Origin: Clostridia bacterium
GTDB lineage: Bacteria; Bacillota; Clostridia; Oscillospirales; Acutalibacteraceae
Assembly: GCA_017623615.1 (NCBI GenBank)
Contig: JAGAOT010000014.1
Location: 78,958-110,957 of the forward strand
Length of the DNA stretch: 32,000 nt
Reading direction: 5' to 3'
The translations under genes were made by a program, and so were the position numbers. Positions 10,817-32,000 of this stretch are shown here, piece by piece. Below the pieces are notes generated by a model, which made no database searches, was not told the origin of the DNA, and saw only the letters and a list, made by a program, of their open reading frames with translations. Every line of letters starts with the position of its first letter. Within the stretch, counting starts at the first letter, position 1.

Positions 10817-10843
10817 AGGGTCGATGTGGGCATCGGCCCCTAC
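10817..10843 (-). repeat. GC-rich palindromic repeat (REP-like) between the response-regulator and kinase genes
   Basis: Plus strand AGGGTCGATGTGGGCATCGGCCCCTAC, one mismatch to 6502-6528. Its CTA (10840-10842) is the TAG stop of the response regulator. No T-run follows it on the minus strand. Confidence 0.7.
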
Positions 10844-11508
10844 TTCACCTCAAAACAGTAGCCCACGTTGATAACGGTTTTTATGCAATCCGATTTTTCG
10901 CCGAGGGCTTTGCGGATTATTTTGATGTGGGTATCCACAACCCTCTCGTCGCCGTCAAAATCATATCCCCAGATTCGCGACAGAATAATTTCTCTTTTGA
11001 GCACAATGTTTTTGTTATCCATAAGATATTTCAAAAGCTTGAAATCCTTGTTTGAAAGAACGATTTCCTTTCCGTCAACAAAAACCTTTCTTGCCGCAAG
11101 GTCAAGGATTATCCCGTTTTCCTCCATGCGGTTTTCGCGGTCAATGCCGCGGTATCGCCTTATTGTTGCCATGCATTTTTCATAGAGAACGGAAAGCGGA
11201 TAAGGCTTTGTCAGATAATCGTCACAACCCGCGGAATAGCCCGCCAAAAAGTCGCGCTCATCGCCCAAGGCAGTCAAAAAAAGAATGGGCGCGGAGTTTT
11301 CTTTCCTTATGCTTCGGCATGCGGTTATTCCGTTTATTTCAGGCATCATTATGTCGAGTATAATAAGGTCAAAATCCTGCTCGGAAGCCTTTTCGCATGC
11401 ATCTTCGCCGTCTTTTGCAAGAACAACCTCCAGCCCCTTTGCGCAGAGGTAATCCCTGACTGTTTCGCGCATTTTAATTTCATCATCGGCAAAAAGTATT
11501 TTGAACAC
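10840..11508 (-). CDS. OmpR/PhoB-family response regulator
   Basis: 222 aa. Receiver domain (FADDE...DLIILDIMMPEING) plus winged-helix output (RIWGYDFDGDERVVDTHIKIIRKAL). GTG start 11508, 6 nt after GGGGGAG. Confidence 0.9.
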   Translation of the reverse strand: MFKILFADDEIKMRETVRDYLCAKGLEVVLAKDGEDACEKASEQDFDLIILDIMMPEINGITACRSIRKENSAPILFLTALGDERDFLAGYSAGCDDYLTKPYPLSVLYEKCMATIRRYRGIDRENRMEENGIILDLAARKVFVDGKEIVLSNKDFKLLKYLMDNKNIVLKREIILSRIWGYDFDGDERVVDTHIKIIRKALGEKSDCIKTVINVGYCFEVK

Positions 11509-16683: not shown

Positions 16684-16700
16684 AAAATCGGGGTGATTTG

Positions 16701-18248
16701 ATGTTTGTTGTTACAAGCAAGCAAATGTATGCGGCGGAGTGCAACGCCGTTAAAAGAGGAATATCCTTTCCGCAGCTTATGGAAAATGCGGGTCAGGCAT
16801 GCGCCAAAATCATAAAAAAGCATTTTTGCATCAGCAAGGAAAATCCGCGCAATGTGCTGATTATCTGCGGCAAGGGCAAAAACGGCGGTGACGGCTTTGT
16901 TATCGCCCGCAAAATGTGGGAATACGGCTGTGACGTTACCGTTATGCTTGCCTGCGGGGAGCCGAAGGCAAGGGACGCCGTTGACATGTTTTCGCTTGTT
17001 GAATCGGCGGGAATTAACATAGTAAGATATAACAATAACCTCACCGTTTTAAAGCCGCATCTTGAAAAAGCGGAGATAATTGTTGAGGCGGTTTTCGGCA
17101 CGGGCTTTACCGGCTCGCTTGACCATTCTTTGAGCGTTCTTGCGCAGGCGGTCAATGCCGCAAAGGCACCCGTTGTTGCGATTGATGTGCCTGCGGGTGC
17201 GGACTGCGACAGCGCAACCGTGCAGGGCACGGTTTTTAAAGCGGATATGACAATCGCAATTTCGGCATACAAGCCTATTCATATCATGAAGCCATGCAGC
17301 AAATACTGCGGAAAGCTTGTTGTTGCCGACATAGGCATAACAACCGATGATATCAAAAATATCGACAGCGTAACCTGCTTCACGCTCGGCACGCAGGAAG
17401 TCAAATCCATGCTTCCCAAGAGAAAGCCCGTTTCAAACAAGGGCACCTACGGGCACGCCCTTTGCGTTTGCGGAAGCATGAGGATGACGGGCGCGGCTTA
17501 TCTCGCCGTTGGCGGTGCTCTGCGCTGCGGCGCGGGGCTTGTTACCGCGGCATTCCCGCAGAGTGCATATCCTGCAATCGCGCCGAAGCTTACAGAGCCG
17601 CTTCTGCTGCCTCTTGAATCAAATTTTGAGGGCACCTTTGCCTTTTCCGCAATGGCGGGGGTTATCGAGGCATCAAGCCGCGCAACTGCGGTTTTGGCAG
17701 GCTGCGGACTCGGATTTAACAAAGACACAACCCTGCTGGTTACAAACCTTATAAAAGAAATAAAAAAACCGATGATTATTGATGCAGACGGCATAAATGC
17801 TTTGAGCACAAATATAGATATATTGAAAGAAGCCGAAGCACCGATAATCATAACTCCGCATCCGGGCGAAATGAGCCGACTTTGCGGCAAGAGCATTCCC
17901 GAAATTCTTGCAAACCCAATCTCGATTGCATATGATTTTGCAAAGAAATACGGCATAACGGTTGTCCTGAAAGGCGCAAACACCGTTGTATGCGACGGCA
18001 AAACAGACGGAATTTATGTTAACGCAACGGGCAATTCGGGGCTTGCGCGCGGCGGAAGCGGCGATTTGCTTGCAGGAATGGCGGTTTCATTCCTCGCGCA
18101 GGGCATGAAGCCGTTTGATGCGGCGATGTGTGCCGTTTATCTGCACGGCTTGTGTGCGGATGAGGTTGCAAAAAACACCTCTATGCGCGGAATGCTTCCG
18201 AGCGATGTTTTGAATTATCTGCCCGAGCTTTTTTCAAAATTTGAATAG
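16701..18248 (+). CDS. nnr: Bifunctional NAD(P)H-hydrate repair enzyme (epimerase + ADP-dependent dehydratase)
   Basis: YjeF_N motif CGKGKNGGDG. The C-terminal carbohydrate-kinase-like domain has GGSGDLLAG. ATG 16701 preferred over TTG 16698 (SD GGGGTGA 16690-16696). Ends in TAG 18246-18248. Confidence 0.9.
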   Translation: MFVVTSKQMYAAECNAVKRGISFPQLMENAGQACAKIIKKHFCISKENPRNVLIICGKGKNGGDGFVIARKMWEYGCDVTVMLACGEPKARDAVDMFSLVESAGINIVRYNNNLTVLKPHLEKAEIIVEAVFGTGFTGSLDHSLSVLAQAVNAAKAPVVAIDVPAGADCDSATVQGTVFKADMTIAISAYKPIHIMKPCSKYCGKLVVADIGITTDDIKNIDSVTCFTLGTQEVKSMLPKRKPVSNKGTYGHALCVCGSMRMTGAAYLAVGGALRCGAGLVTAAFPQSAYPAIAPKLTEPLLLPLESNFEGTFAFSAMAGVIEASSRATAVLAGCGLGFNKDTTLLVTNLIKEIKKPMIIDADGINALSTNIDILKEAEAPIIITPHPGEMSRLCGKSIPEILANPISIAYDFAKKYGITVVLKGANTVVCDGKTDGIYVNATGNSGLARGGSGDLLAGMAVSFLAQGMKPFDAAMCAVYLHGLCADEVAKNTSMRGMLPSDVLNYLPELFSKFE

Positions 18249-22154: not shown

Positions 22155-23438
22155 ATGAACTTACCGAATTGCGTTAAAGAAAGAATGGACAAATACTGCT
22201 CCGTTATTGAAAAATACAGCCCCAAGCTTTCACAGCTTTACGGAAACTGCTATCCCAACACGCTTGAAACAGCAACGGAATTTATGCCCGACGGCTCTGT
22301 TTTTGTTTTGACGGGCGATATTCCCGCAATGTGGCTTCGCGACTCAACAGCGGAGGTTTCTCACTATATTCCGCTTGCAAAGGATAATGAGGATATCTGT
22401 GACATCATAAGAGGCGTTATCAAAAGGCAGAGAATGTATATCACTCTTGAGCCTTATGCAAACGCATACAAAAAAGAGCCCAACGACCACAGAGAGTTTG
22501 ACGACTCCCCTCTTAACCATCCCATCGTGTGGGAAAGAAAATACGAAATCGATTCGCTCTGCTACCCCGTAAGGCTTGCATATTTATATTGGAAAGCAAC
22601 GGGCGACAGTTCCGTGCTCGGTGAGGATTTTCTTGAAAGCGCGAAAATAACCGTTAACCTTTGGAGAACGGAACAGCACCATTTTGAGAAATCCCCCTAC
22701 CGTTTTTCAAGAAACAACTGCCCTTATCAAGACACGCTTCACAACAACGGCATGGGCGAGCCCGTTGAATACACGGGCATGACATGGTCGGGCTTCAGAC
22801 CCAGCGACGATGCCTGCCGCTACGGCTACCTTGTTGCCTCCAACATGTTTGCGGTTGTTGTTTTGGGATATCTTGCGGAAATGCTCAATGCCGCATATCA
22901 GGAAGAAAAAGAGCTTATCGCCGAATGCGATGCACTCAGGGCAGACATTGAAAAGGGCATTGCAGATTTTGCGGTTGTTGAACATGAGAGGCACGGCAAA
23001 ATCTACGCCTGCGAGGTTAACGGCAAGGGCGACTATTTCCTTTTTGACGATGCAAACGTGCCCAGCCTGCTTTCCGCTCCCTATCTCGGATTCTGCGATT
23101 ATGACAATGAAATCTACATGAACACGCGCAGATTTATTCTGAGCAAGGATAATCCTTATTATTATGAGGGCAAATATGCAAAGGGTGTCGGCAGCCCGCA
23201 CACACCCGAGGGCTACATTTGGCACATCGCGCTTTCAATGCAGGGCTTGACAAGCAACGACCCCGCCGAAATCCGCGAAATTCTGCACATGCTTGAAACC
23301 ACCGACGGCGGCACGGGCTATATGCACGAGGGCTTTGATGCAAATGACCCCGACACATTCACAAGAAGCTGGTTCAGCTGGTCGTGCGCACTTTTTGCGG
23401 AGCTTGTTGAAAAAGCGGTTGATAAAAAAATAATTTAA
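22155..23438 (+). CDS. GH125 (DUF1237) metal-independent exo-alpha-1,6-mannosidase
   Basis: 427 aa with the family-typical TGDIPAMWLRDS motif and length. Confidence 0.8.
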   Translation: MNLPNCVKERMDKYCSVIEKYSPKLSQLYGNCYPNTLETATEFMPDGSVFVLTGDIPAMWLRDSTAEVSHYIPLAKDNEDICDIIRGVIKRQRMYITLEPYANAYKKEPNDHREFDDSPLNHPIVWERKYEIDSLCYPVRLAYLYWKATGDSSVLGEDFLESAKITVNLWRTEQHHFEKSPYRFSRNNCPYQDTLHNNGMGEPVEYTGMTWSGFRPSDDACRYGYLVASNMFAVVVLGYLAEMLNAAYQEEKELIAECDALRADIEKGIADFAVVEHERHGKIYACEVNGKGDYFLFDDANVPSLLSAPYLGFCDYDNEIYMNTRRFILSKDNPYYYEGKYAKGVGSPHTPEGYIWHIALSMQGLTSNDPAEIREILHMLETTDGGTGYMHEGFDANDPDTFTRSWFSWSCALFAELVEKAVDKKII

Positions 23439-23456
23439 GAAAATTATAAAAAAGAC

Positions 23457-23485
23457 TTGCAAAATTCAAAACATTATGGTATTAT
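23457..23485 (+). promoter_or_regulatory. Promoter of tRNA-Thr
   Basis: TTGCAA (23457-23462), 17-nt spacer, TATTAT (23480-23485), about 40 nt upstream of the tRNA. Confidence 0.6.
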
Positions 23486-23524
23486 AACATGCGTTCGATA
23501 CGGAACATAAAAATATCATAATTT

Positions 23525-23600
<76 letters not shown>

Positions 23601-23636
23601 ATCCCTTGAAACTTAAGGTTTCAAGGGATTTTTCTT
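23601..23636 (+). terminator. Intrinsic terminator after tRNA-Thr
   Basis: 12-bp stem ATCCCTTGAAAC / GTTTCAAGGGAT with loop TTAAG, followed by a T-run. Confidence 0.8.
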
Positions 23637-23655
23637 GTGTTTTATGAAATTCATC

Positions 23656-23700
23656 AGACCGCATCCCTAAATCGCAATTTTTTAGTAAGGGATGCGGTCT
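23656..23700 (+). repeat. 13-bp perfect inverted repeat abutting the integrase start
   Basis: AGACCGCATCCCT (23656-23668) / AGGGATGCGGTCT (23688-23700) with a 19-nt loop. It ends 4 nt before ATG 23705. Confidence 0.7.
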
Positions 23701-23704
23701 AACT

Positions 23705-24637
23705 ATGAGCAGAAAAATCACTATGAACAGGACTGAAAACAAGACCTTTGAACAGGTCTTTTCAATGTTCATCACTTCAAGAACGGCAAACGGCGTTTCC
23801 GATGCAACAATCAGGAATTATCATCAGCATTTGCACAGTATTTCAAAGTATCTTGACATTAAGATGCCCTTTGATAAGCTCTCCAAAAGCACCATTGATG
23901 ATATGATTGTCGAAATGCGAAACTCCGACCTTGCCTATAATTCCATTGCAACCTATGTCAGGGTTGTAAAAACTTTTCTTACTTGGTGTAATGAGGAAGG
24001 TTTGTCTGATGTTAAAATCAAAGGTCTGAAGGAAAAGGAAACGGTAAAAGAAACTTACACCGATGAGGAGCTTGAAATCCTGTTGGCAAAACCGAAAAAG
24101 GACTGTAATTTTTGCGAATACCGTAATTGGGTTATTGTCAATTTTCTCCTCAACAGCGGATGCCGAGCGGCAACAATCAGAAACATTCAGAACAGAGATG
24201 TTGACCTTCAGCGAAAACAGGTTATCTTCCGACATAATAAGAACGGCAAAATTCAGGTTATCCCCCTTTGTTCTCTGATGTGTAATATCCTGATTGATTA
24301 CATGAAAATAAGGCAGGGCGAAGCAGAAGATTATCTTTTCTGCGACCAATACGGCAAAATGCTGACCGAGAACGGTCTCAGACTTGCCATTGAACGATAC
24401 AACAAGAAAAGAGGCGTAAGCAAAACAAGCACGCATCTGTTCCGCCACACCTTTGCCCGAAAGTATTTAGTTGACTGCGGCGGCGATGCCTTTATGCTTC
24501 AAAGGCTCTTGGGTCATAGCACTCTGAACATGACAAAGCATTACTGCACAATCTTCGATGCGGATATTTCCAAGAACTATGACAGAGTTTCTCCACTTGC
24601 TCAGATGCACCAAGAGAAAAAGAAAATAATCAAATGA
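23705..24637 (+). CDS. Tyrosine site-specific recombinase (phage-type integrase)
   Basis: 310 aa. SAM-like N-domain plus a catalytic domain carrying the R...HxxR...Y signature context (GCRAATIRN..., THLFRHTFARKY, LLGHSTLNMTKHY). Confidence 0.9.
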   Translation: MSRKITMNRTENKTFEQVFSMFITSRTANGVSDATIRNYHQHLHSISKYLDIKMPFDKLSKSTIDDMIVEMRNSDLAYNSIATYVRVVKTFLTWCNEEGLSDVKIKGLKEKETVKETYTDEELEILLAKPKKDCNFCEYRNWVIVNFLLNSGCRAATIRNIQNRDVDLQRKQVIFRHNKNGKIQVIPLCSLMCNILIDYMKIRQGEAEDYLFCDQYGKMLTENGLRLAIERYNKKRGVSKTSTHLFRHTFARKYLVDCGGDAFMLQRLLGHSTLNMTKHYCTIFDADISKNYDRVSPLAQMHQEKKKIIK

Positions 24638-24644
24638 TATAAAG

Positions 24645-24691
24645 AAAGAAGCAGGAGCTTATCAGGAGCTTATCAACTTTCCTGCTTCTTT
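24645..24691. terminator. Bidirectional terminator hairpin with an 11-bp tandem duplication in the loop
   Basis: Stem AAAGAAGCAGGA (24645-24656) / TCCTGCTTCTTT (24680-24691). AGGAGCTTATC occurs twice in tandem at 24653-24674, the first copy overlapping the last 4 nt of the left stem arm. Confidence 0.7.
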
Positions 24692-24747
24692 TTAATTAGT
24701 TTGAAACAACCTTTTTGCTACATTATAAGAACTTTTTAACAACTTTT

Positions 24748-25869
24748 TTAATCGTTATACATACCTCTTATCTTATCTAAATGAGCCTTATACCCTTCAA
24801 CCACATGGTCGGGTGCAAGAACCTTTACTTTTTTACCGAATCCTGCAAGCCAACCATAAAAAGGTTCACTTATATCAACCGTTGTCATAACTGTAAAATA
24901 ATCTTTGTCGAGCTTAGAATATGACACGCCCTTTTTACCGAATCGCTCAACAACGGCATCCAAAAGGAAGTTGGGGAAACAGAGTGTGACCACTTCTGTT
25001 TTGCCTTTAAACATATTAAATGTTCTTTTTATGAGCGATTCAATATTGGTCTTTTCGTATTCTTCTTCGCCCTCTCTCGGCTCAGATGTAAAACAAACGT
25101 CTTTCATCCTGTCAACTCTATAAATTCTTATCTCTTTGTATTTATCGTCAAATCCTAAAAGATAATAATTGCCGTCATTGATAACGAGCTTATAAGGACT
25201 GACAATATATTTTTCTCCTTTTCTCTGTGCAACCTGATTGTGAAGGTCGTTTATTGAGTTTTTCATATAATGAAAACTTATCTTTTCAGGTTCGTGCGGT
25301 TCGCCGTCATAACTGACACTCATTGCTTCGTAAATAGTTTGAATGTTGTATATCAGAGCGGTGTTTGTTGTTTTGGGTCTGTCGATAACAAACGCATCCG
25401 CCTTTATTTTCTTTGCCTGATGAACACTGAGAAATTCACAGGCGGCATCAATCAATCGCTGAGCTTCAGATTCAGAAACAAATTTTGCCGAGTTAATGCA
25501 CTCAGTCATAAGGCGAATATCCTGAAGGCTGAAGTGTCGCTCAGGGATATAAAATCCTTTGGGATGTTTGTAAAGAATCAATTTTTCTTCATCGTATTTA
25601 TCGTTCGCAATTACTTTTACGGCTTCATCAATATCAGAATCGTTTTCAAGCATCCAATTAACTTCATTTATTTCTTCAATATCTTTGTATATGGAGCGGC
25701 GTTCCGCATAAATCTGACAGTTCTCCTGAAGAAAAGCCTCAATCATTTTGCCTGAAGCATAATTATCTTCATCGGTTTCTCTGAGAAGATACTGAAGAAC
25801 GATATAAGGCTTCATGCGTTGCTTCGGCTTTTTGCCGTGATGCTTGTCAGGATGCTTTTTTTTCGCCAT
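24748..25869 (-). CDS. WYL-domain transcriptional regulator (N-terminal wHTH + WYL + C-terminal extension)
   Basis: 373 aa. N-terminal HTH-like YIVLQYLLRETDEDNYASGKMIEAFL. WYL core YYLLGFDDKYKEIRIYRVDRMKDV. SD GAAGGTGA upstream. Confidence 0.75.
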   Translation of the reverse strand: MAKKKHPDKHHGKKPKQRMKPYIVLQYLLRETDEDNYASGKMIEAFLQENCQIYAERRSIYKDIEEINEVNWMLENDSDIDEAVKVIANDKYDEEKLILYKHPKGFYIPERHFSLQDIRLMTECINSAKFVSESEAQRLIDAACEFLSVHQAKKIKADAFVIDRPKTTNTALIYNIQTIYEAMSVSYDGEPHEPEKISFHYMKNSINDLHNQVAQRKGEKYIVSPYKLVINDGNYYLLGFDDKYKEIRIYRVDRMKDVCFTSEPREGEEEYEKTNIESLIKRTFNMFKGKTEVVTLCFPNFLLDAVVERFGKKGVSYSKLDKDYFTVMTTVDISEPFYGWLAGFGKKVKVLAPDHVVEGYKAHLDKIRGMYND

Positions 25870-25946
25870 AATATCACCTTCTTGTGTCTGTTGGCGATAT
25901 TATAACACGCAAAACCAAAAGTGTGAAGATGTATTTTATAAAGCAC

Positions 25947-25975
25947 TTGAAAAATTGGAATAATATTGATATAAT
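25947..25975 (+). promoter_or_regulatory. Strong promoter with extended -10
   Basis: TTGAAA (25947-25952), 17-nt spacer, TGaTATAAT (TATAAT = 25970-25975). Confidence 0.7.
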
Positions 25976-25982
25976 AAATGCA

Positions 25983-26158
25983 CCACACAAAAACCGAATA
26001 TTAACATTTATCAGGAGTCCTTTTTTGTTTTGGCAAAAATGTAGACTTCTCTTTTGGCATTTCTGATAAGTGTTAAAAGGTTTTTGTGTGGTAGCAAATC
26101 GAAGTTCTGCATTTTTCGGTGTGTGCGGCTTCGGTTGCACACACTTTTTTATTTTTTT
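25983..26158 (+). promoter_or_regulatory. Structured 5' leader ending in an intrinsic terminator (candidate attenuator/riboregulator or sRNA)
   Basis: Perfect 13-nt long-range complement CCACACAAAAACC (25983-25995) / GGTTTTTGTGTGG (26079-26091). A nested pair ACATTTATCAG / CTGATAAGTGT lies inside it. The terminator GTGTGTGC (26119-26126) / GCACACAC (26137-26144) plus a long T-tract sits immediately before SD GGAGG and ATG 26173. Confidence 0.55.
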
Positions 26159-26172
26159 GGAGGTAAAAACAA

Positions 26173-26682
26173 ATGAAAAAAGCATTGAAAACAGTCGTCA
26201 TTCTCATAGTGGTAATTGCCATAGGTTTTGTGGCAATAAAACTTATTACCACTCCCAAAAGTGCTGAAATTGGAGAAACAGTAAAATATGCAAACAATGG
26301 TGAGTTTGTAGTAAATGATATTACTGTTTATAATGATGCTCTTGAAATGTTTGCAGACGGCTATCGTTTTTCAGAAGTCAAGGATGATGAAGGCTTAATA
26401 ATGGTTGATTTCACAATGAAAAACACAGGAAAAATTGATTTTGATGTAGAGCCTAAAGTAATAGTAAATTATGACAACGGTGTTGAATTTACATCAGAAT
26501 ACTTATTTCATAAGACATCAACGGGTTCATTTGAACTGTGTCAAAATGGATTTTTATTGGAAAAAGTAACAAGCGATGCCGAAACTTTTGTCGTTGTTGT
26601 TCCTGTTCCACAGCAAGTCATTGAAAACGAAGATAAATCTCTTGAAGTGGAAGTATACTACAAGAATTATATTATTAGATAA
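26173..26682 (+). CDS. Membrane-anchored extracytoplasmic protein (DUF4352-like beta-sandwich, tentative)
   Basis: 169 aa. N-terminal TM VVILIVVIAIGFVAIKLI followed by a beta-rich domain (FVVNDITVYND...IMVDFTMKNTGKIDFDV). SD GGAGG upstream. Confidence 0.7.
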   Translation: MKKALKTVVILIVVIAIGFVAIKLITTPKSAEIGETVKYANNGEFVVNDITVYNDALEMFADGYRFSEVKDDEGLIMVDFTMKNTGKIDFDVEPKVIVNYDNGVEFTSEYLFHKTSTGSFELCQNGFLLEKVTSDAETFVVVVPVPQQVIENEDKSLEVEVYYKNYIIR

Positions 26683-26721
26683 AATATCAAAAAGATAAAC
26701 AAACAAGAGGTGTTAATTGTT

Positions 26722-27267
26722 ATGAAGAAAAAAATTGCAAATGCAGTTCAGTTGGTATTATTAATCGCATCATTTATTGTTTTAAATTCAGAAAATATTA
26801 CAGACCCCGGCAAGTTTTCTGCCATTACATTTTTAAGAGACTGGTCATCCATGCTTATCCCTATGTATGTTTTATATATACTCTGTGCCGTTATGTGCAT
26901 TATTTCCATTGTTTCAAAAAGCAAACATAAAGACGGAAAAGCTCATGGTGCTGTTGCAATATTACTATTTATTTACACAATGTTTTTCTTCTGTTTCTTT
27001 AATTCAAGTGACTATAACTGTAAGATTATTGAAACCGATTTCCCCATCGCACTTTTCAGCGGTTTACTGTTTGCAGTAATAGTCGTTGCCTTTGCAAAAC
27101 GTTCTTCACTCATTGCAGAACCAAAAGAATCAAAGCAGACGGTTGTTAACAACATTCAGGAAACAACAAATGCCGATGAATTGAAAAAGTATAAAGACCT
27201 GCTTGACAGCGGTGCAATATCACAAGAAGAATTTGATGCAAAGAAAAAGGAACTTTTGGGTTTATAA
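26722..27267 (+). CDS. Multi-pass membrane protein with C-terminal SHOCT domain
   Basis: About four TM segments, then DELKKYKDLLDSGAISQEEFDAKKKELLGL (SHOCT-type short oligomerisation motif). ATG 26722 preferred over the track GTG 26710, which overlaps the SD. Confidence 0.7.
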   Translation: MKKKIANAVQLVLLIASFIVLNSENITDPGKFSAITFLRDWSSMLIPMYVLYILCAVMCIISIVSKSKHKDGKAHGAVAILLFIYTMFFFCFFNSSDYNCKIIETDFPIALFSGLLFAVIVVAFAKRSSLIAEPKESKQTVVNNIQETTNADELKKYKDLLDSGAISQEEFDAKKKELLGL

Positions 27268-27274
27268 TATTAAC

Positions 27275-27299
27275 GGGGAACGGTTTTGAGCCGTTCCCT
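27275..27299. terminator. Bidirectional terminator hairpin
   Basis: GGGAACGG (27276-27283) / CCGTTCCC (27291-27298), with T-rich flanks on both strands. Confidence 0.7.
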
Positions 27300-27305
27300 G
27301 TTTCT

Positions 27306-27893
27306 TTATGTCTCCAAAAGAGAAAGATATTTATAAACCGTGTTTCTACTCAGACCGCAGACCCTTGCGAACTCAGAAAGATTCAGATTGCCCGATTTGA
27401 ACGCAGGATAATGTCTGTAAAACACTTGCGGAATCGCATCCGTTGTTGTTTGCGGTCGCCCGATTTTCGCTCCCTTTGCTTTGGCATTTGCCATTCCTGA
27501 ACGCACTCTTTCACGGATGATTCTGAGTTCGAGTTCCGCAAACACTCCCGACATCTGAATGAACGCATTTGTCATGGGGTCAATCTGACCGTTTGAACAA
27601 TCAACCGTAATACTCCCCACAATTACGAGACGGAGCTTATTATCCTTTACGGTTTCGATAATTTCACAAAGTTGCTTTGTGCTTCGGGCAAGTCTTGAAA
27701 CTTCAAGAGTATAAATTGTGTCTCCTTCCTGAGCCTGTTCCAAGAGGGATGAAAGCTCCTGCTTCACGGCACTGTCGCCGTGTTCGTATTCAAGGAATAT
27801 TTCCGTTGCTCCTGCGGCTTTCAGTTCTTTAACCTGACGAAAAATATCTTGTTTGCTCTCATTAGTCGAGCAACGTGCATATCCGTAGTTCAT
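27306..27893 (-). CDS. Small serine recombinase (resolvase/invertase type) with C-terminal HTH
   Basis: 195 aa. N-terminal catalytic motif YGYARCSTNESKQD and the E-helix ELELRIIRERVRSG. C-terminal HTH LSEFARVCGLSRNTVYKYL. Confidence 0.9.
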   Translation of the reverse strand: MNYGYARCSTNESKQDIFRQVKELKAAGATEIFLEYEHGDSAVKQELSSLLEQAQEGDTIYTLEVSRLARSTKQLCEIIETVKDNKLRLVIVGSITVDCSNGQIDPMTNAFIQMSGVFAELELRIIRERVRSGMANAKAKGAKIGRPQTTTDAIPQVFYRHYPAFKSGNLNLSEFARVCGLSRNTVYKYLSLLET

Positions 27894-27907
27894 GATTTAT
27901 CTCCTTA

Positions 27908-28174
27908 TCAATCAACAAAGGTGTTGTATGTGAATTTTGCTCCAAGCTTAAAGCCTGCAATAAAACTGTCTGCGTTGCTTACACAAAGGAACTCACCCGA
28001 CTGTTTCAGATATGTGTCAAACAGTTCGCTTTCCGCATCGGTCAGGCTTGCGGCAAGCACACTCTCTGTCTGAGACAGAGCTTTTAATCTCTTTCTGAGT
28101 TCGGGTTTCAGCTCGGTTGTGATTTCCTGCGGCTCGATGTTTCCGTAATAAAATTCTTCAATAAAGTTCGGCAT
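27908..28174 (-). CDS. Hypothetical small protein (MGE-associated, EEFYYGNI N-terminus)
   Basis: 88 aa. SD GGAGAAAGGA upstream. Sits 14 nt upstream of the recombinase gene in the same operon. Confidence 0.6.
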   Translation of the reverse strand: MPNFIEEFYYGNIEPQEITTELKPELRKRLKALSQTESVLAASLTDAESELFDTYLKQSGEFLCVSNADSFIAGFKLGAKFTYNTFVD

Positions 28175-28223
28175 CTTTTATCCTTTCTCCGCCCCACTGT
28201 TGCGTGGGGCGGACTGTCTATTC

Positions 28224-28499
28224 TCAGCAGATTGAGAAGCGGCGGCTGCTGACCTGCTTTGTGAACTCCTTATACATTTCACCGTGCATCTTCTTGAATG
28301 CGGTGGTATCGAATCTCTGTGAGAGCACCGAAGTCCAACGGATGATATAAGCTCCTGCTTCAAGTTCCTCGGTGTCCTGTTCAAGCATCTCTGCTTTGAG
28401 TGCCTCTCTGATTGCCTCTGCTTCTGCCTTAGCATCCTCGATGATTGTTTCCCACTCTGCGAGAGCCTCGATTTTCTTGATGATTTCGTTGTTTGACAT
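28224..28499 (-). CDS. Hypothetical coiled-coil-rich small protein, first gene of the recombinase operon
   Basis: Start set at ATG 28499 (MSNNEIIKKIE), 8 nt after AAAGGAGA. The track start 28541 lies inside the promoter/operator region. 91 aa. Confidence 0.6.
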   Translation of the reverse strand: MSNNEIIKKIEALAEWETIIEDAKAEAEAIREALKAEMLEQDTEELEAGAYIIRWTSVLSQRFDTTAFKKMHGEMYKEFTKQVSSRRFSIC

Positions 28500-28554
28500 G
28501 GTTGTTATCTCCTTTGTTTTTATTTGTTTGGTGTGTATCAACTGTCTATATTAT

Positions 28555-28640
28555 AGCACTAAATATTAGTGCTGTCTATTGACATATTGCACTAACTTTT
28601 AGTGTAATCTTTGTGCAAATTTAGCACTTGATTTTAGTGC
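28555..28640. promoter_or_regulatory. Divergent promoter region with three palindromic operators (CI/Cro-like switch)
   Basis: O1 AGCACTAAATATTAGTGCT (28555-73, perfect). O2 GCACTAACTTTTAGTGT (28589-605). O3 GCACTTGATTTTAGTGC (28624-40). Leftward promoter is TAGACA (28573-78), 17 nt, TATAAT (28550-55), with O1 filling the spacer. Rightward promoters are TTGACA (28579-84), 18 nt, TGTAAT, and TTGATT (28628-33), 17 nt, TGaTAGAAT (28651-56). Confidence 0.7.
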
Positions 28641-28685
28641 AACAATATGATAGAATGATTACACTGGGAAAGGTGGTGCTAAAAT

Positions 28686-28904
28686 ATGGCATTACAGTAT
28701 AAGATTGATATTATGGATGCGTTAAAAAACAAAGGCTATTCTTCAACTAAAATCCGTGAAGAAAAACTTATCGGTCAATCATACCTTCAACAAATCAGAC
28801 ACGGCGAATTGGTATCATGGAAAACCATTGATACTCTTTGCTCCCTCTTAGACTGTCAGGTGGGCGATTTGGTTGAGTATGTAAAAGACCCCGATGCTCA
28901 GTAA
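28686..28904 (+). CDS. XRE/Cro-CI-family HTH regulator
   Basis: 72 aa. Typical short HTH protein with C-terminal TIDTLCSLLDCQVGDLVEYV. SD AAAGGTGGTG upstream. Confidence 0.8.
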   Translation: MALQYKIDIMDALKNKGYSSTKIREEKLIGQSYLQQIRHGELVSWKTIDTLCSLLDCQVGDLVEYVKDPDAQ

Positions 28905-29177
28905 AGGGGTGTTCGAGTTTCTTGAACAAATAACGGCGATTTTCGTGCGGAATACACCCGATTTTTACCGAGCTTAAAGTGTGAATGAAAGCAGTTGTTT
29001 TTCTGAACAGGGGTCAGGGGGTATATTTCGGGAGAATCAAAAACACTTTCGCCCTTTGCGGAATTGCGTGGCTCGTTCTCCGTCTGAATGTGATTTTTGT
29101 TTCGGATTACGGTTTATCCCGACCGCAAATGATAGAATGATTATTTCTCCGTCAAACAAACCAAAAGGAATATAAAC

Positions 29178-29224
29178 GAAAAAATACGGCAAACCGTGAG
29201 ATTGTCTCTCTTGGTTTGCCGTAT
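29178..29224 (-). terminator. Intrinsic terminator ending the TAG-containing operon (hairpin also usable on the plus strand)
   Basis: 12-bp stem ATACGGCAAACC (29184-95) / GGTTTGCCGTAT (29213-24), followed by ATTTTTTC on the minus strand. Confidence 0.75.
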
Positions 29225-29226
29225 TG

Positions 29227-29358
29227 TTATTTGAAATCTTTAAAGATTTTGTCAAATGCCATATCAAGTGCGGTTTTCATGCTCTTTTGCATAAAGGCAA
29301 GAATTTCCGCCTCGATTATGTTCTTCTTTTTCCGCTTTTTATCTTTTGGCTTCGCCAC
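29227..29358 (-). CDS. Small basic protein, 43 aa (operon gene E; no internal TAG)
   Basis: GTG 29358, 6 nt after AGGTGAA. Translation (M)AKPKDKKRKKKNIIEAEILAFMQKSMKTALDMAFDKIFKDFK, TAA stop. Not on the ORF track because it is under 60 aa. Confidence 0.5.
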   Translation of the reverse strand: MAKPKDKKRKKKNIIEAEILAFMQKSMKTALDMAFDKIFKDFK

Positions 29359-29360
29359 TG

Positions 29361-29546
29361 TTATTTCACCTCGCTTGTAAAGATGAATTGAACAGTTTCG
29401 GGTTCTTCCGAATCATGTAATGAGTTGAAGAAATTATCTCTCTGTTCTGTATAGTTTTCTATTGCAGATTTGCCGTTCATTTGATAATAAAACAAATCGG
29501 GAACTTTGCCCTATGCCCTGTTAAACTCCAATAAATCTTTATTCAT
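29361..29546 (-). CDS. Hypothetical 61-aa protein requiring TAG read-through (operon gene D)
   Basis: ATG 29546, 7 nt after GGAAGGAGAA. Translation MNKDLLEFNRA-[TAG 29511-29513]-GKVPDLFYYQMNGKSAIENYTEQRDNFFNSLHDSEEPETVQFIFTSEVK, TAA stop. Its start overlaps the gene C stop (ATGA). Confidence 0.6.
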
Positions 29547-29980
29547 ATATTTTCTCCTTCCATAATATCATCAAGGGATATATTCAATGCAACCCTGTTG
29601 ACTGTATAGCTTCTCCAATTTTCCTCTTTTGGAATCTGAGTGTTCAGCGGCGGCTAATACAGGCGGATGAAATATCCTTCTCTTTCTCCGATTTCTTCTT
29701 CGATTTCTGCTCTTGTTTTGCTCTTGGCGGTATAAAGAACATTGAATCTGACGTTATATCTCCGCCTATGGGCTTCCGCAAGAACTTTATATTTATTCTC
29801 TTTTGGATTTCCCATTGAAGCCCAATGTTCCGCCATTCGGTATAGAATATCTTTGCTTTTACCGATATAAACGATTTTATTGTTGACGGTTATTGAATAA
29901 ACCCCCGAACACTAAAACTTTTTACTCCATTCTTGCTCAATGTATTTGTTGTATATGTTCTGTATGTGTAAATTACTCAT
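29543..29980 (-). CDS. GIY-YIG nuclease-domain protein, 145 aa, requiring read-through of two TAG codons (operon gene C)
   Basis: ATG 29980, 7 nt after AAGGAAGGAG. Translation MSNLHIQNIYNKYIEQEWSKKF-[TAG 29912-14]-CSGVYSITVNNKIVYIGKSKDILYRMAEHW...EREGYFIRLY-[TAG 29654-56]-PPLNTQIPKEENWRSYTVNRVALNISLDDIMEGENI, TGA stop 29543-45. The track shows only the 60-aa fragment 29654..29836. Confidence 0.7.
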
Positions 29981-29995
29981 ATTCATTCTCCTTCC

Positions 29996-30478
29996 TTAAA
30001 ATACAAAATTACCGTGTTCGTCTGTTGAACACTCACTTACTTTTTGATTCTTTATATTGTTATAATTTATATTATTCGAGCTTATAATTTTCTCTATATT
30101 ATTATGCGTATTTTCAATAACCCCTGCTGAGGTATATTCAGAATTTGAAGGGGTATATTCATTGTCGGGGGAAGGGGTATTTTCAATATCCCTCTCCGCA
30201 CTTTTATAAATCGCATCATAATCAACGATGATTTCACCTTGCTGACCGTTTTCGCTTGGCTTGTGGATTATCCAACCTTTTTCAATCAGCTTTTTTCTTG
30301 CACTCTTATATGTTGTTTCTGACATTCCGCATCTGCTCATGACCGTCGCCTCAGGAACGGCAAAACTGCCGTTGTCTGCGTTTCCTGTCAGAAATAATAT
30401 CAGTTTCAGCTAAGCTCCTTCTTTGCCTGTCAGACCGTTAAATATTATTGATTCAAGGTGATTCGTTCTCATTGCCAT
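29996..30478 (-). CDS. Winged-helix (replication-initiator/DnaD-like N-terminus) protein, ~160 aa, requiring TAG read-through (operon gene B)
   Basis: ATG 30478 or 30472. Translation MAMRTNHLESIIFNGLTGKEGA-[TAG 30410-12]-LKLILFLTGNADNGSFAVPEATVMSRCGMSETTYKSARKKLIEKGWI..., TAA stop. The track ORF 29996..30340 starts in the middle of the HTH. Confidence 0.65.
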
Positions 30479-30509
30479 TCCCCACTTTTTATCCCTGTTT
30501 TTTTCTCCA

Positions 30510-30689
30510 TTAGCCCTCAGTATCGGTGCCTGAATAAAAACGCCCATAGCCGCAAATCCTCCACTATTCGCAAATAAATCTGATATACTGACTTGTATTC
30601 ATGTGATATTTTCTTGCCTACTCTTGGATTGCTTCCTTTTCTTTTTCAGTCAGGCGAAGGTCAATTTTTTTATCTTTTTTTGGACTCAT
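30510..30689 (-). CDS. Ribbon-helix-helix / MobC-like small protein, 59 aa, requiring read-through of one or two TAG codons (operon gene A)
   Basis: ATG 30689, 7 nt after AAGGAGAG. Translation MSPKKDKKIDLRLTEKEKEAIQE-[TAG 30618-20]-ARKYHMNTSQYIRFICE-[TAG 30564-66]-WRICGYGRFYSGTDTEG, TAA stop 30510-12. Confidence 0.65.
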
Positions 30690-30758
30690 TTTATCTCTCC
30701 TTTTACTTGTAAATTTTCTTTGAAATGAATTATCAGACGTTGTCCTACCTTCTAATAT

Positions 30759-30787
30759 ATTATACAAAAAATTTTTCTTAAAATCAA
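30759..30787 (-). promoter_or_regulatory. Promoter of the TAG-containing operon
   Basis: Minus strand TTGATT (30782-87), 17-nt spacer, TATAAT (30759-64), about 70 nt upstream of ATG 30689. Confidence 0.7.
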
Positions 30788-30803
30788 AAAAGAGCGGTCG
30801 CCG

Positions 30804-30840
30804 CAAACAAAAACGCCACTGAACAGTTGAGTTCAGCGGC
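30804..30840 (-). terminator. Intrinsic terminator after the upstream paralog gene
   Basis: Minus strand CCGCTGAAC / GTTCAGTGG (plus 30816-24 and 30831-39, one wobble), followed by CGTTTTTGTTTG. Confidence 0.7.
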
Positions 30841-30874
30841 GGACTTGCTTTATTAAAATACATATGGATTCCTC

Positions 30875-31342
30875 TTATGAAACTTTTTTAAGTTGGAGTT
30901 CTTCGCTCTTTGTCTCTTGGATTTCTTCCGAATCCTTTTTAATAGTCGGCATACCGTTATTTACGATTTCAGGATATTTCTCCAAAAACCAATTTTTTAT
31001 TTCGGGATAACGGTGTGCTTTCGAGTGGCATTCACTGATAAAAAGTTTATCATCAAGTTCTTGGAGAACAGCATCTCTTGTTTCAATGGGCTCAAATCTT
31101 CTGATAAATTCTCTCATATAATCATAAGTTAATCCCTCATAGTGTTCCTGATTGCCGTTGATTTTTATATCTTCACGAACAACAACCTTATAGCTCGGGA
31201 AACTCTTTATATATCCTGCATGTATTTTAAACTCCTTATTTTTGGGGTTCTTTGCTTTTTCCGCAAACCATTTGTAAAGGACAATTTGATTGTTAGCGTG
31301 GTCGAATCTTGCAGGGTTAATTCTTGTTTTAGTCTTTGCCAT
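30875..31342 (-). CDS. Hypothetical protein, paralog 1 (YxGLxYDYM ... WFLxxYPEI motifs)
   Basis: 155 aa. SD AGGAAAGGAAGG upstream, TAA stop. Shares two motifs with the upstream gene. Confidence 0.7.
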   Translation of the reverse strand: MAKTKTRINPARFDHANNQIVLYKWFAEKAKNPKNKEFKIHAGYIKSFPSYKVVVREDIKINGNQEHYEGLTYDYMREFIRRFEPIETRDAVLQELDDKLFISECHSKAHRYPEIKNWFLEKYPEIVNNGMPTIKKDSEEIQETKSEELQLKKVS

Positions 31343-31365
31343 AGTTATTTACCTTCCTTTCCTAA

Positions 31366-31821
31366 TTAAGCCACAACTCTGAGATTGGCTTTCTTTTCTT
31401 CACGAACCTTTGCTCTCTTGGCTTTAATTTCCTTAAGTGTCTTGTCGGTATCATTGTTGAATTCTTCGATTTCAGGATATGTCGCCAAGAACCACATTCT
31501 TACATCACCATAAGAGTATTCTTTGATAGCAACATCTCTTTCACCTTTTTCATTAAGACCCCTGAGCTTATAGAACATTTTAAGATTTTCTTCCTTATTG
31601 TCATGAGCTTCGATATATCGCTTCATGTAATCGTAATCAAGACCTTTGTAAGTATCTTTATTAGTTGAGTTTGCTTTTACAACGATTTCAAAATCAGGGC
31701 ATAATGTGCGGAGTTTTACAAGTTCATTGAACTTTTCACTGCCGAACTTTCCTGCTTCCTTAGCTTCTGTCTTTGTCATTTCGATTGTGTTTTTTTCAAA
31801 ATTAATTGTCATAGTTATCAT
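31366..31821 (-). CDS. Hypothetical protein, paralog 2
   Basis: 151 aa. ATG 31812 (MTINFEKNT) may be the real start, given the spacing from AAAGGAA. YKGLDYDYMKRYI and WFLATYPEIEEF match paralog 1. TAA stop. Confidence 0.7.
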   Translation of the reverse strand: MITMTINFEKNTIEMTKTEAKEAGKFGSEKFNELVKLRTLCPDFEIVVKANSTNKDTYKGLDYDYMKRYIEAHDNKEENLKMFYKLRGLNEKGERDVAIKEYSYGDVRMWFLATYPEIEEFNNDTDKTLKEIKAKRAKVREEKKANLRVVA

Positions 31822-32000
31822 TTCCTTTACTAAATTATTTTGCGGTAAGTCGCTACCTTATTTCAGCACTTCAGGTTTCACCGTTTGCCTCTTGGTTTCG
31901 TTCACTCCTTTCAGGCGTTTTGTTTTGGTGTGTTCCCCTCTGCTGTGTCTACAGTATATCACGCAACCACAATTTATCAGTCGTTATAAATGCAAAAAAC

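Follow-up and report, generated by a model that had tools for sequence, protein, structure and literature searches.

A stretch of 32,000 nucleotides (nt) of DNA from a Clostridia bacterium of the Acutalibacteraceae (assembly GCA_017623615.1, contig JAGAOT010000014.1, positions 78,958 to 110,957 of the forward strand), hereafter called the window, carries towards its right end an integrated genetic island in which two genetic codes meet. A single 1.3-kb operon of the island encoding DNA-handling proteins is punctuated by six TAG codons that, by comparison with relatives, are sense codons read as glutamine, while all other island genes employ the standard code. The island carries no recognisable means of reading UAG, and its recoded operon is homologous to, and syntenic with, a module of TAG-recoded phages. 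We consider it somewhat more probable than the reverse, at about 0.55, that the island is a satellite-like element in which replication or DNA processing is gated by a phage-associated switch of the genetic code; sensing of a helper phage through the code itself is the best inference from the data presented below.

A recoded operon in a standard-code island

The recoded operon lies on the minus strand and constitutes a single self-contained transcription unit, extending from promoter to terminator over 30787-29178. Its features, together with the terminator that separates it from the upstream genes, are as follows:

30814..30840, minus strand: hairpin terminator 3' of two paralogous genes, setting them apart from the recoded operon (sequence inspection)
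30759..30787, minus strand: near-consensus sigma-70 promoter, TTGATT-17 nt-TATAAT (sequence inspection)
30510..30689, minus strand: ribbon-helix-helix (RHH) protein, NikA/MobA-like, 59 amino acids (aa); Pfam NikA-like match at 5e-9, residues 4-37
29996..30547, minus strand: winged-helix (wHTH) replication-initiator-like protein, 183 aa; Pfam HTH_36, residues 45-93
29543..29986, minus strand: GIY-YIG nuclease, 147 aa; Pfam GIY-YIG, residues 27-112
29361..29546, minus strand: o61, 61 aa, with one sense TAG (29513-29511); open frame, TAG/Gln exchange and substitution ratios
29227..29358, minus strand: o43, 43 aa, GTG start, TAG-free, last gene of the operon; open reading frame (ORF) kept in related loci L005 and L006
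29178..29228, minus strand: intrinsic terminator of the operon, a hairpin with 22-nt arms followed by a U run (repeat search and RNA fold of 29226-28905)

Four consecutive minus-strand frames between 30689 and 29361 become open once TAG is read through. The in-frame stops of these genes number six TAG and no TAA or TGA, spread over 1.1 kb, an outcome that random nonsense mutation would yield with a probability of about (1/3)^6 = 0.0014. Besides the one in o61, there are two in the RHH gene (30620-30618 and 30566-30564), one in the wHTH gene (30412-30410) and two in the GIY-YIG gene (29914-29912 and 29656-29654). When codons of the glutamine type are counted, TAG contributes 6 of 18 in the operon and none of 56 in the remaining island (Fisher p = 1e-4), the genes of which are intact ORFs under the standard code (table 11). 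This bears out the central observation of an earlier reading made from the letters of the sequence alone (the sequence-only reading), namely that the code is mosaic within one island.

The interruptions fall early in the genes, the first TAG being codon 24 of 59 for RHH, 46 of 183 for wHTH, 25 of 147 for GIY-YIG, where it lies upstream of the catalytic motif, and 12 of 61 for o61. Domain matches nevertheless extend through them: the Pfam match of the RHH protein spans a TAG, that of GIY-YIG runs across one, and HTH_36 likewise spans the TAG of the wHTH gene. The genes are closely packed, with the RHH and wHTH genes overlapping by 38 nt and the other junctions consisting of a 9-nt gap and two 4-nt overlaps. 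The RHH protein resembles proteins of the NikA/MobA/CopG type, the wHTH protein is similar to the N-terminal origin-binding part of phage replication initiators (PHROG 270, 186 and 428, at 1.5e-10 to 5e-9), and the GIY-YIG protein comprises the catalytic domain alone. For o43, gene callers list a small gene at the corresponding place in relatives.

The 322-nt non-coding stretch at 28905-29226 was also considered as a structured RNA, and this candidate was rejected because folding yielded only the terminator hairpin (z = -2.5 and -1.6).

TAG is read as glutamine

Relatives of the island were drawn from a collection of species-representative genomes, from ENA and Logan assemblies and from metagenomes, and the individual loci are denoted by L numbers. 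In relatives that are 70-99% identical in the operon proteins, the TAG codons of the window are either kept or replaced by CAG or CAA. The reverse exchange also occurs, with glutamine codons of the window written as TAG in relatives and, taken together, TAG is exchanged with CAG or CAA in at least eight alignment columns. Thus FICE-TAG-WRI in the window corresponds to FICEQWRI in L005, L006 and L007, and the second TAG of the RHH gene is CAG in the same three loci. Likewise, GKEGA-TAG-LKL in the wHTH protein corresponds to GKEGAQLKL in L012, L007 carries glutamine at the second TAG site of the GIY-YIG gene, o61 shows TAG/Gln exchange at three sites among the relatives, and the invariant nuclease motif PLNTQIPK is spelled PLNT-TAG-IPK in L015-L018. 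The sites also turn over within the island lineage, an RHH TAG having been gained in the window where L005-L007 keep CAG. It follows from such turnover between island relatives that TAG acts as a synonym of CAG wherever selection touches these genes.

Ratios of nonsynonymous to synonymous substitution (dN/dS, Nei-Gojobori) were determined for the sequence past the first TAG and amounted to 0.09-0.40 across all four genes, including 0.09-0.17 for o61, similar to the values for the backbone genes. Judged by these comparisons, the TAG codons are sense codons with the predicted meaning glutamine (code 15), and the gene portions downstream of each first TAG are under purifying selection. The turnover between TAG and CAG, together with an avoidance of TAG stops throughout the island, indicates that these genes are selected in an environment where UAG means glutamine.

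Public annotation reflects this situation in part. On short contigs, gene callers selected code 15 for the operon genes and produced full-length products, whereas they were broken into fragments on long host contigs. Annotations of public metagenome-assembled genomes (MAGs) contain N-terminally truncated entries named "GIY-YIG nuclease family protein" and "helix-turn-helix domain-containing protein" (P0060, P0062, P0069, P0093, P0110, P0129, P0140 and P0143, all on long contigs), which arose because table 11 was applied. Since standard gene callers split the operon genes on long contigs, current annotation overlooks both the island family and its recoded module.

Island limits and insertion site

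The island is inserted in a tRNA gene, as the sequence-only reading had surmised in calling it compact and tRNA-integrated, and the two features that define its ends are:

23525..23600, plus strand: host tRNA-Thr(GGT) (ARAGORN; Rfam 67 bits), of which the 3' 46 nt (23555-23600) are the attachment (att) core, attL, supplied by the island
31822..32000, no strand assigned: start of a non-coding right arm of about 450 nt with AACAAC repeats and a promoter-like site (overlap with L001-L003 at 99.8%)

The 46-nt repeat is found again at the far island end in L001-L003, L005 and L006. The right end was taken from L001-L003, contigs of other samples that overlap the window end at 99.8% identity, and this places attR at about 32276-32321, some 320 bp beyond the window, followed by the displaced 3' end of the host tRNA and a terminator. 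Between the att repeats the island measures about 8.7 kb; it is essentially complete, satellite-like and devoid of virion and lysis genes. Its GC content is 32-42%, against 43-51% for the host flank. A homologous island with 86-88% nucleotide identity and bounded by the same repeat is present in L005, an Acutalibacteraceae MAG, and is flanked there by host genes, on one side those for a deaminase, GGGtGRT, PAP2 and GH16 proteins and, on the other, those for an aldose epimerase and an HhH-GPD glycosylase.

When extended with L001, the right arm bears about five AACAAC repeats, and it is 95-99% identical to that of L005/L006 as compared with about 85% for the adjoining paralog genes. The repeats are likely to be integrase arm sites. 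The arm may also hold an origin or a packaging site, but its conservation (31822 to about 32275) is more simply explained by attP arm sites plus a promoter.

As a separate observation, four T-arm changes separate the tRNA-Thr 3' half borne by the island from the displaced host copy, GGCAGTTCGAGTCTGCC versus GGCGGTTCAATTCCGCC (window 23555-23600 versus L001 160-205). Two of these changes are paired and preserve the T stem (GCAG/CTGC versus GCGG/CCGC), so that the tRNA rebuilt by integration remains foldable. In L005 the two tRNA-Thr copies are identical. The host flank to the left of the island (window 1-23500) is rich in mannoside and glycan genes (GH38 alpha-mannosidase, GH3, GH125) and also includes patatin-like and YjeF-type genes.

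Search for a decoder

ARAGORN detected one tRNA in the whole window, the host tRNA-Thr(GGT), and Infernal/Rfam added no further tRNA for 23400-32000 at E<=5, which agrees with the sequence-only reading, where no tRNA with a CUA anticodon could be found in the visible part of the island. That reading had allowed for a suppressor tRNA encoded in the part of the island still unseen. This possibility falls away: the remaining 320 bp or so, seen in the overlapping contigs, hold no tRNA and, with attR so close to the window end, there is no unseen island part that could accommodate one. The search was extended to about 100 related islands, which, like the island itself, yielded no tRNA(CUA), release factor or synthetase gene, and to 80 metagenomic loci of the family (653 kb), which yielded no tRNA(CUA). 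No pyl genes occur in the window, and the equivalence of TAG sites with glutamine codons argues against pyrrolysine decoding.

The host evidently uses TAG as a stop. Two of 14 host genes end in TAG (10840-11508 and 16698-18248) and long host ORFs carry no sense TAG, so that genome-wide reading of TAG as sense, which the earlier reading had named as fatal to its hypothesis, is excluded. The same reading had attributed two TAG stops to the backbone; these do exist, but as stops of host genes, and the island has none, with 15 of its 15 genes ending in TAA or TGA. It is well supported, then, that decoding of UAG in the island operon must come in trans.

To this extent the proposal of decoding in trans holds; the part of it that named a suppressor tRNA donated by a helper phage finds no support in the phage lineage that is the likeliest source of a helper. 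The 30 related phage loci that were analysed contain no tRNA(CUA), the boundary tRNA-Thr being their only tRNA of any kind. Three phage contigs covered end to end (L031+L042, L029+L050 and L025+L045) are equally devoid of tRNA(CUA), no release factor or synthetase gene was detected in the fetched related phages, and Rfam at E<=1 on 69 kb of recoded phages found no suppressor tRNA. With lowered thresholds, ARAGORN produced scattered, non-syntenic calls that were fewer than expected by chance. Such a deficit has a precedent, because, among TAG-recoded phages, only 40% were seen to carry suppressor tRNAs for TAG (Borges et al., bioRxiv 10.1101/2021.08.26.457843). The decoder could be another phage factor, a non-canonical RNA, a third element or a conditional host function.

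Related phages with the same module

The sequence-only reading had called for a search for TAG-recoded phages, and temperate ones do exist with a homologous, syntenic and recoded module. Small siphovirus-like phages have homologues of the GIY-YIG gene, at 29-50% identity, directly ahead of terS and terL. Some of these phages use the standard code (L014, L019/L023) and others are TAG-recoded (L011 and many IMG/VR contigs of about 22 kb). Four gene families are common to island and phages, with the following identities: GIY-YIG, 29-46% for the IMG/VR homologues and 50% for the standard-code L014; integrase, 53% for L019/L023 and 38% for TAG-recoded phages such as L031; wHTH, 34%, with the L066 homologue matching at 3e-20; and, fourthly, RHH. 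The similarity extends to the promoter region of the operon, where an identity of 91-94% over 31-35 nt is shared both with the region preceding an HNH-RHH-GIY-terS operon in phage L023 and with intergenic stretches in phages L019 and L021.

A scan based on the capsid protein, with a query confirmed as a major capsid protein of Firmicutes-phage affinities, recovered 31 loci of the phage clade; 30 were analysed, of which 22 are TAG-recoded. Where a phage is recoded, this extends to nearly everything except the integrase and a few small genes, which are TAG-free. The phage gene order is RHH, a Rep-like gene (wHTH or rep261), GIY-YIG, a small gene or PD-(D/E)XK nuclease, terS, terL and portal. The recoded order RHH-wHTH-GIY-small gene-terS-terL is found in L060, L070, L056 and L031, and in L060 and L070 the RHH, wHTH and GIY genes contain two, one and two TAGs, respectively, as they do in the island. 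The rep261 gene carries six TAGs in phage L031 (5-6 in L031/L029) and has standard-code homologues in islands L034-L038, which are inserted at tRNA-Lys(CTT); we are dealing, therefore, with one gene family that occurs in both codes across the divide between islands and phages.

In one contig of a recoded phage, a tRNA-Thr(CGT) adjoining the integrase marks the contig end. The Topaz clade described earlier consists of TAG-recoded phages of 22 +/- 3 kb with an Oscillospiraceae host, their prophages having an integrase and tRNA-Thr at the borders (Borges et al., bioRxiv 10.1101/2021.08.26.457843), and the phages of about 22 kb fetched here appear to be Topaz-like, judging by size, code, type of host and flanking tRNA-Thr. 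Further searches gave no match: this was so for the recoded module against GenBank phages and PLSDB plasmids at the nucleotide level, for the GIY-YIG protein by tblastn against GenBank phages, and for the att core against IMG/VR, and the fetched phage loci do not share a single 18-mer with that core.

Two other features of the recoded phages were recorded. A TAG-free trio encoding a DUF4160-like protein (86 aa), a DUF2442-like protein (105 aa) and an RHH protein (51 aa) is located at 11244-12003 in L025 and 14377-15138 in L031, inside an otherwise recoded structural region. Of 28 recoded loci, 18-19 carry it, and all 13 standard-code relatives lack it. The trio may represent a moron that the lysogen expresses, or else a candidate factor for the code switch, with a distribution that is confounded by phylogeny. 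In addition, phage L031 shows at about 4790-5260, between the lysogeny genes and the RHH-Rep-GIY module, a strong promoter-like site, about 400 nt free of ORFs with long hairpins, and a terminator; this non-coding unit has no Rfam match.

Standard-code genes of the island

Reading from attR, the island consists of the right arm of about 450 nt, paralogs A and B, a terminator, the promoter and the genes for RHH, wHTH, GIY-YIG, o61 and o43 with their terminator. There follow a convergent XRE gene, three operators, p105, DUF6809 and a serine recombinase, cargo genes on the opposite strand, a WYL/WCX regulator and, finally, the integrase, again on the opposite strand, and attL in the tRNA-Thr gene. 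The standard-code features are:

23705..24637, plus strand: tyrosine integrase, TGA stop; Pfam Phage_integrase 3e-25
24748..25869, minus strand: WYL/WCX-domain regulator; Pfam WYL 1.7e-12 and WCX 4e-6, PADLOC WYL 1.9e-25
26173..27267, plus strand: variable cargo slot with two membrane proteins of 169 aa and 185 aa (SHOCT); Pfam SHOCT 2.4e-10
27306..28541, minus strand: operon of p105, DUF6809 and a small serine recombinase (resolvase/invertase type); Pfam Resolvase 2.6e-29, DUF6809 5.6e-20
28551..28642, no strand assigned: three palindromic operator-like sites, GCACTAA-N-TTAGTGC, between XRE and the p105 operon (repeat search)
28686..28904, plus strand: XRE/Cro-C1-type HTH regulator; Pfam HTH_26 1.1e-10
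30875..31821, minus strand: two tandem paralogs of 155 aa and 151 aa, the hallmark of the family (standard-code ORFs)

The p105 protein is similar to PHROG 6244 (1.4e-14). The operator-like region is 88-94% conserved among otherwise diverged islands, and its three spaced palindromes recall a lambda-like three-operator switch. Between the resolvase and WYL genes, relatives (L005, L007, L009, L012 and L015) have other contents in the slot, namely genes for a protein of 1030 aa or of 280 aa, a leucine-rich repeat protein, an Mrr/NA-iREase nuclease or an Eco57I-type methylase, and this cargo slot has the appearance of a hot spot, reminiscent of the defence hot spots of satellites.

The paralogs share the conserved motifs GLxYxYM and WFLxxYPE, fall into 832 clusters (50% identity, E<=1e-3) and are always in tandem, and they have no match in Pfam, PDB or BFVD (AlphaFold2 model with a predicted local distance difference test score of 74.7). 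They were considered as a code-switch factor common to the phages and rejected, as they have no significant phage homologue by hidden Markov model search and none in IMG/VR. Searches of Pfam and PHROG revealed no terminase, portal, capsid, tail or lysin gene in the island, and no match for packaging or capsid-hijacking genes (terS, ppi, cpm, capsid) among its proteins. A relaxase domain is absent from all island proteins, and the sole NikA/MobA-like accessory-type match, that of the RHH protein, lies below the NCBIfam cut-offs.

The island family

The island belongs to a large and modular family of gut Clostridia marked by the two tandem paralogs. Its members insert at genes for tRNA-Thr, tRNA-Lys and tRNA-Gln/Lys, and possibly at those for tRNA-Val, tRNA-Met and tRNA-Glu, judging from the tRNAs in the fetched flanks. 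The slot between the paralogs and XRE accepts alternative modules. The GIY-type module (a small RHH-like gene, wHTH, GIY-YIG and a small gene) is recoded in all cases surveyed, with sense TAGs in GIY-YIG at 13 of 13 loci (30 TAGs) and in wHTH at 4 of 12. Modules with an SF2-helicase-like protein of about 400 aa or a rep261 protein of 219-271 aa are written in the standard code.

Sense TAGs were not found in the backbone genes of the family, with counts of 0/35 for XRE, 0/33 for p105, 0/11 for the resolvase and 0/24 for WYL. Apparent TAGs in matches to the paralogs and the integrase are nearly all true stops or lie upstream of the start codon, with one possible exception, which lies close to the C-terminus of a paralog in L122. 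Orthologues of the island genes in the family terminate with TAA or TGA only, and TAG stops in integrase-type genes occur in just three islands, all of them standard-code.

A proposed translational lock and what might open it

The picture that we favour is the following. The operon would be driven by a strong promoter and be locked at the level of translation by its TAG codons. In an ordinary cell, ribosomes would stop within about the first 40% of each of the four proteins and, because the genes overlap or abut and are likely to be translationally coupled, the block would compound, the fragments being useless and the loss of downstream products probably polar. Full-length initiator and nuclease would be made only in a cell that reads UAG as glutamine. 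The only known setting for that state in standard-code gut Firmicutes is a cell infected by a TAG-recoded phage or one in which such a phage is induced (Borges et al., bioRxiv 10.1101/2021.08.26.457843), and the lytic development of such a phage in the same cell would be the likeliest occasion. The recoded operon would be the island's copy of the module that precedes the terminase genes in the Topaz-like phages of about 22 kb; replication or DNA processing of the island would thereby be tied to a TAG-recoded phage, and the island would then be replicated and/or packaged. Here we infer a phage as the trigger, adaptive gating, and the subsequent replication or packaging of the island; the recoding, its restriction to one operon and the homology with the phage module are observed.

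More tentatively, and at somewhat less than even odds, the proposal may be widened to the family as a whole: a widespread family of islands would use sense TAGs as a translational lock on an operon for initiator and nuclease that derives from phages, detect TAG-recoded phages by their code change and either exploit them as helpers or attack them. Such a channel for sensing a helper or a threat would have no described counterpart among satellites or defence systems. A corollary would be an undescribed decoder, independent of tRNA, derived from the host or otherwise non-canonical.

Several results weigh against gating by a phage. No helper phage was identified, either from the island flanks or by the att-core search, and a search for a tandem prophage within 10 kb of 80 related islands revealed no structural genes of phages. 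The family, searched by its hallmark paralogs, was not found among the viral contigs of IMG/VR and therefore shows no sign of packaging. The putative replication role of the RHH-wHTH-GIY module is assigned by remote similarity alone. A host-derived switch is possible in view of the related recoded phages having no recognisable tRNA(CUA), release factor or synthetase. Lastly, about two thirds of the family carry modules of the SF2-helicase or rep261 type in the standard code; since the non-GIY modules are standard-code, the recoding follows the module and could have been inherited instead of selected for sensing.

The last point leads to the alternative that survives best, although we regard it as rather unlikely: the GIY-type module was imported from a TAG-recoded phage, and its TAGs persist since the module is useful only beside such phages or is barely used, so that no sensing is involved. 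That code tracks module type on one and the same backbone fits well with such an origin, as do the homology and synteny with the recoded phage modules. Mere inheritance accords less readily with the gain and loss of TAG sites within island lineages and with purifying selection past the TAGs, and the shunning of TAG stops by the whole island suggests adaptation to a state in which UAG is read. The difference from gating by a phage is mainly one of adaptiveness, because the consequence, expression under suppression only, is the same.

It is also unlikely, in our estimate, that the host holds the switch, for instance as a conditional chromosomal suppressor tRNA or as a drop in release factor 1 that lets a near-cognate tRNA-Gln read UAG, with phages and islands both keyed to the host state. 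This would account for the islands and three fully covered phage contigs of about 22 kb (among the 30 phage loci) lacking tRNA(CUA), release factor and synthetase genes, and for the 40% incidence of suppressor tRNAs in recoded phages cited above. On the other hand, with host genes stopping at TAG and long host ORFs free of it, such a suppressor would need tight conditionality, and no such conditional UAG factor is known from these bacteria.

A third possibility, which we consider quite improbable, assigns the module to defence. GIY-YIG and its DNA-binding partners would form a latent toxin that is translated when a TAG-recoded phage switches the code, destroys phage or host DNA and aborts the infection. 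The constant recoding of GIY-YIG (13/13), with the first TAG before the catalytic motif, fits a latent nuclease; the cargo slot of relatives holds defence-type genes (Mrr/NA-iREase, Eco57I-type methylase), and a WYL regulator, of a kind known beside defence systems, is present. Yet phages carry homologous GIY-YIG genes by their terminase genes in both codes, which points to a function in the phage life cycle, the nuclease is embedded with a replication-initiator homologue, and its PADLOC matches are weak (a homing-endonuclease model at 1.2e-4 and two others at 1.8e-3). Inheritance, a host switch and defence all have a core in common with gating by a phage, namely expression only under suppression supplied in trans.

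Decay or artefact, in the form of nonsense mutations in a dying module, sequencing or assembly errors, or an ordinary recoded prophage continuing past the window, can be dismissed as extremely improbable: under table 11 there are only short ORFs, and for relatives NCBI records GIY-YIG and HTH proteins in truncated form, but TAG is the sole interruption, its sites are kept in independent assemblies and exchanged with glutamine codons, and dN/dS is 0.1-0.4, which refutes the pseudogene and sequencing-error readings, while the att repeat close to the window end and the host genes flanking relatives (as in L005) refute a prophage, including the case, foreseen in the sequence-only reading, of a tRNA with structural and lysis genes beyond position 32000.

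Comparison with known systems

Mosaic codes with a standard-code integrase are already known from recoded prophages, and sensing through suppressor tRNAs has been suggested for co-infecting phages (Borges et al., bioRxiv 10.1101/2021.08.26.457843). A full-text literature search of a limited collection turned up no account of recoding in a satellite, an island or any other mobile element that is not a phage. What is new here is code-15 recoding that is confined to one phage-derived operon in a family of satellite-like islands without a decoder. Descriptions of stop-codon recoding have until now dealt with phages and prophages, and the models derived from them assume that the element itself changes the code. 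The island is a fully delimited, non-phage element that cannot read its own genes, and the question of who decodes UAG, and when, becomes sharply testable. If a recoded phage does open the lock, the genetic code would serve as a signal between mobile elements, a new mode of sensing between satellite and helper or host and phage, and would offer a natural template for gene circuits gated by suppression. The lack of a recognisable suppressor tRNA in Topaz-like phages and island relatives is also a sign that some part of the natural recoding mechanism has so far been missed.

The closest parallels are with phages of the Topaz clade (Borges et al., bioRxiv 10.1101/2021.08.26.457843), which, like the island, read TAG as glutamine in standard-code Firmicutes hosts of the Oscillospiraceae type, have TAG-free integrase and lysogeny genes, integrate at tRNA-Thr and often show no detectable suppressor tRNA. 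The recoded phages of about 22 kb fetched in this study have homologues of the island's integrase, RHH, wHTH and GIY-YIG genes, arranged as they are in the island. The Topaz phages have genomes of 22 +/- 3 kb, whereas the island of 8.7 kb is without terminase, portal, capsid, tail and lysis genes. Moreover, recoding in the island affects a single DNA-handling operon and not the structural and lysis module, and the hallmark paralogs do not occur in the phages.

Satellites, including phage-inducible chromosomal islands (PICIs), P4-like elements and PICI-like elements (PLEs), resemble the island in being small, in occupying a tRNA-type site and in combining an integrase, a repressor-type switch, a replication-type module and variable cargo without virion genes. 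If our proposal is correct, they also share a key module that is silent until a phage-associated cue arrives. Known satellites sense their helpers by protein-protein derepression or transcriptional transactivation; the cue proposed for the island is a code change acting at translation. The island differs further in having no primase-helicase, terS, capsid-remodelling or AlpA-type genes. Where PICIs carry a pri-rep module, it encodes only the 183-aa wHTH initiator-like protein, and other family members have the SF2-helicase-like protein of about 400 aa in this slot. The PICI-like layout seen by the sequence-only reading is consequently apt as regards the integrase, the att sites, the small size and the absence of virion genes, but not as regards the primase-helicase and packaging genes. 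The island fits neither a PICI, for want of these, nor an integrative mobilizable element, having no relaxase, nor a Topaz prophage, having no virion genes.

A final comparison can be made with amber-suppressor systems, whether amber mutants of the laboratory or phage suppressor tRNAs, in which, as predicted for the island, a full-length protein appears only upon suppression of UAG. Unlike the laboratory amber systems, that of the island would be a natural one, conserved in a family and under purifying selection, with its decoder encoded elsewhere.

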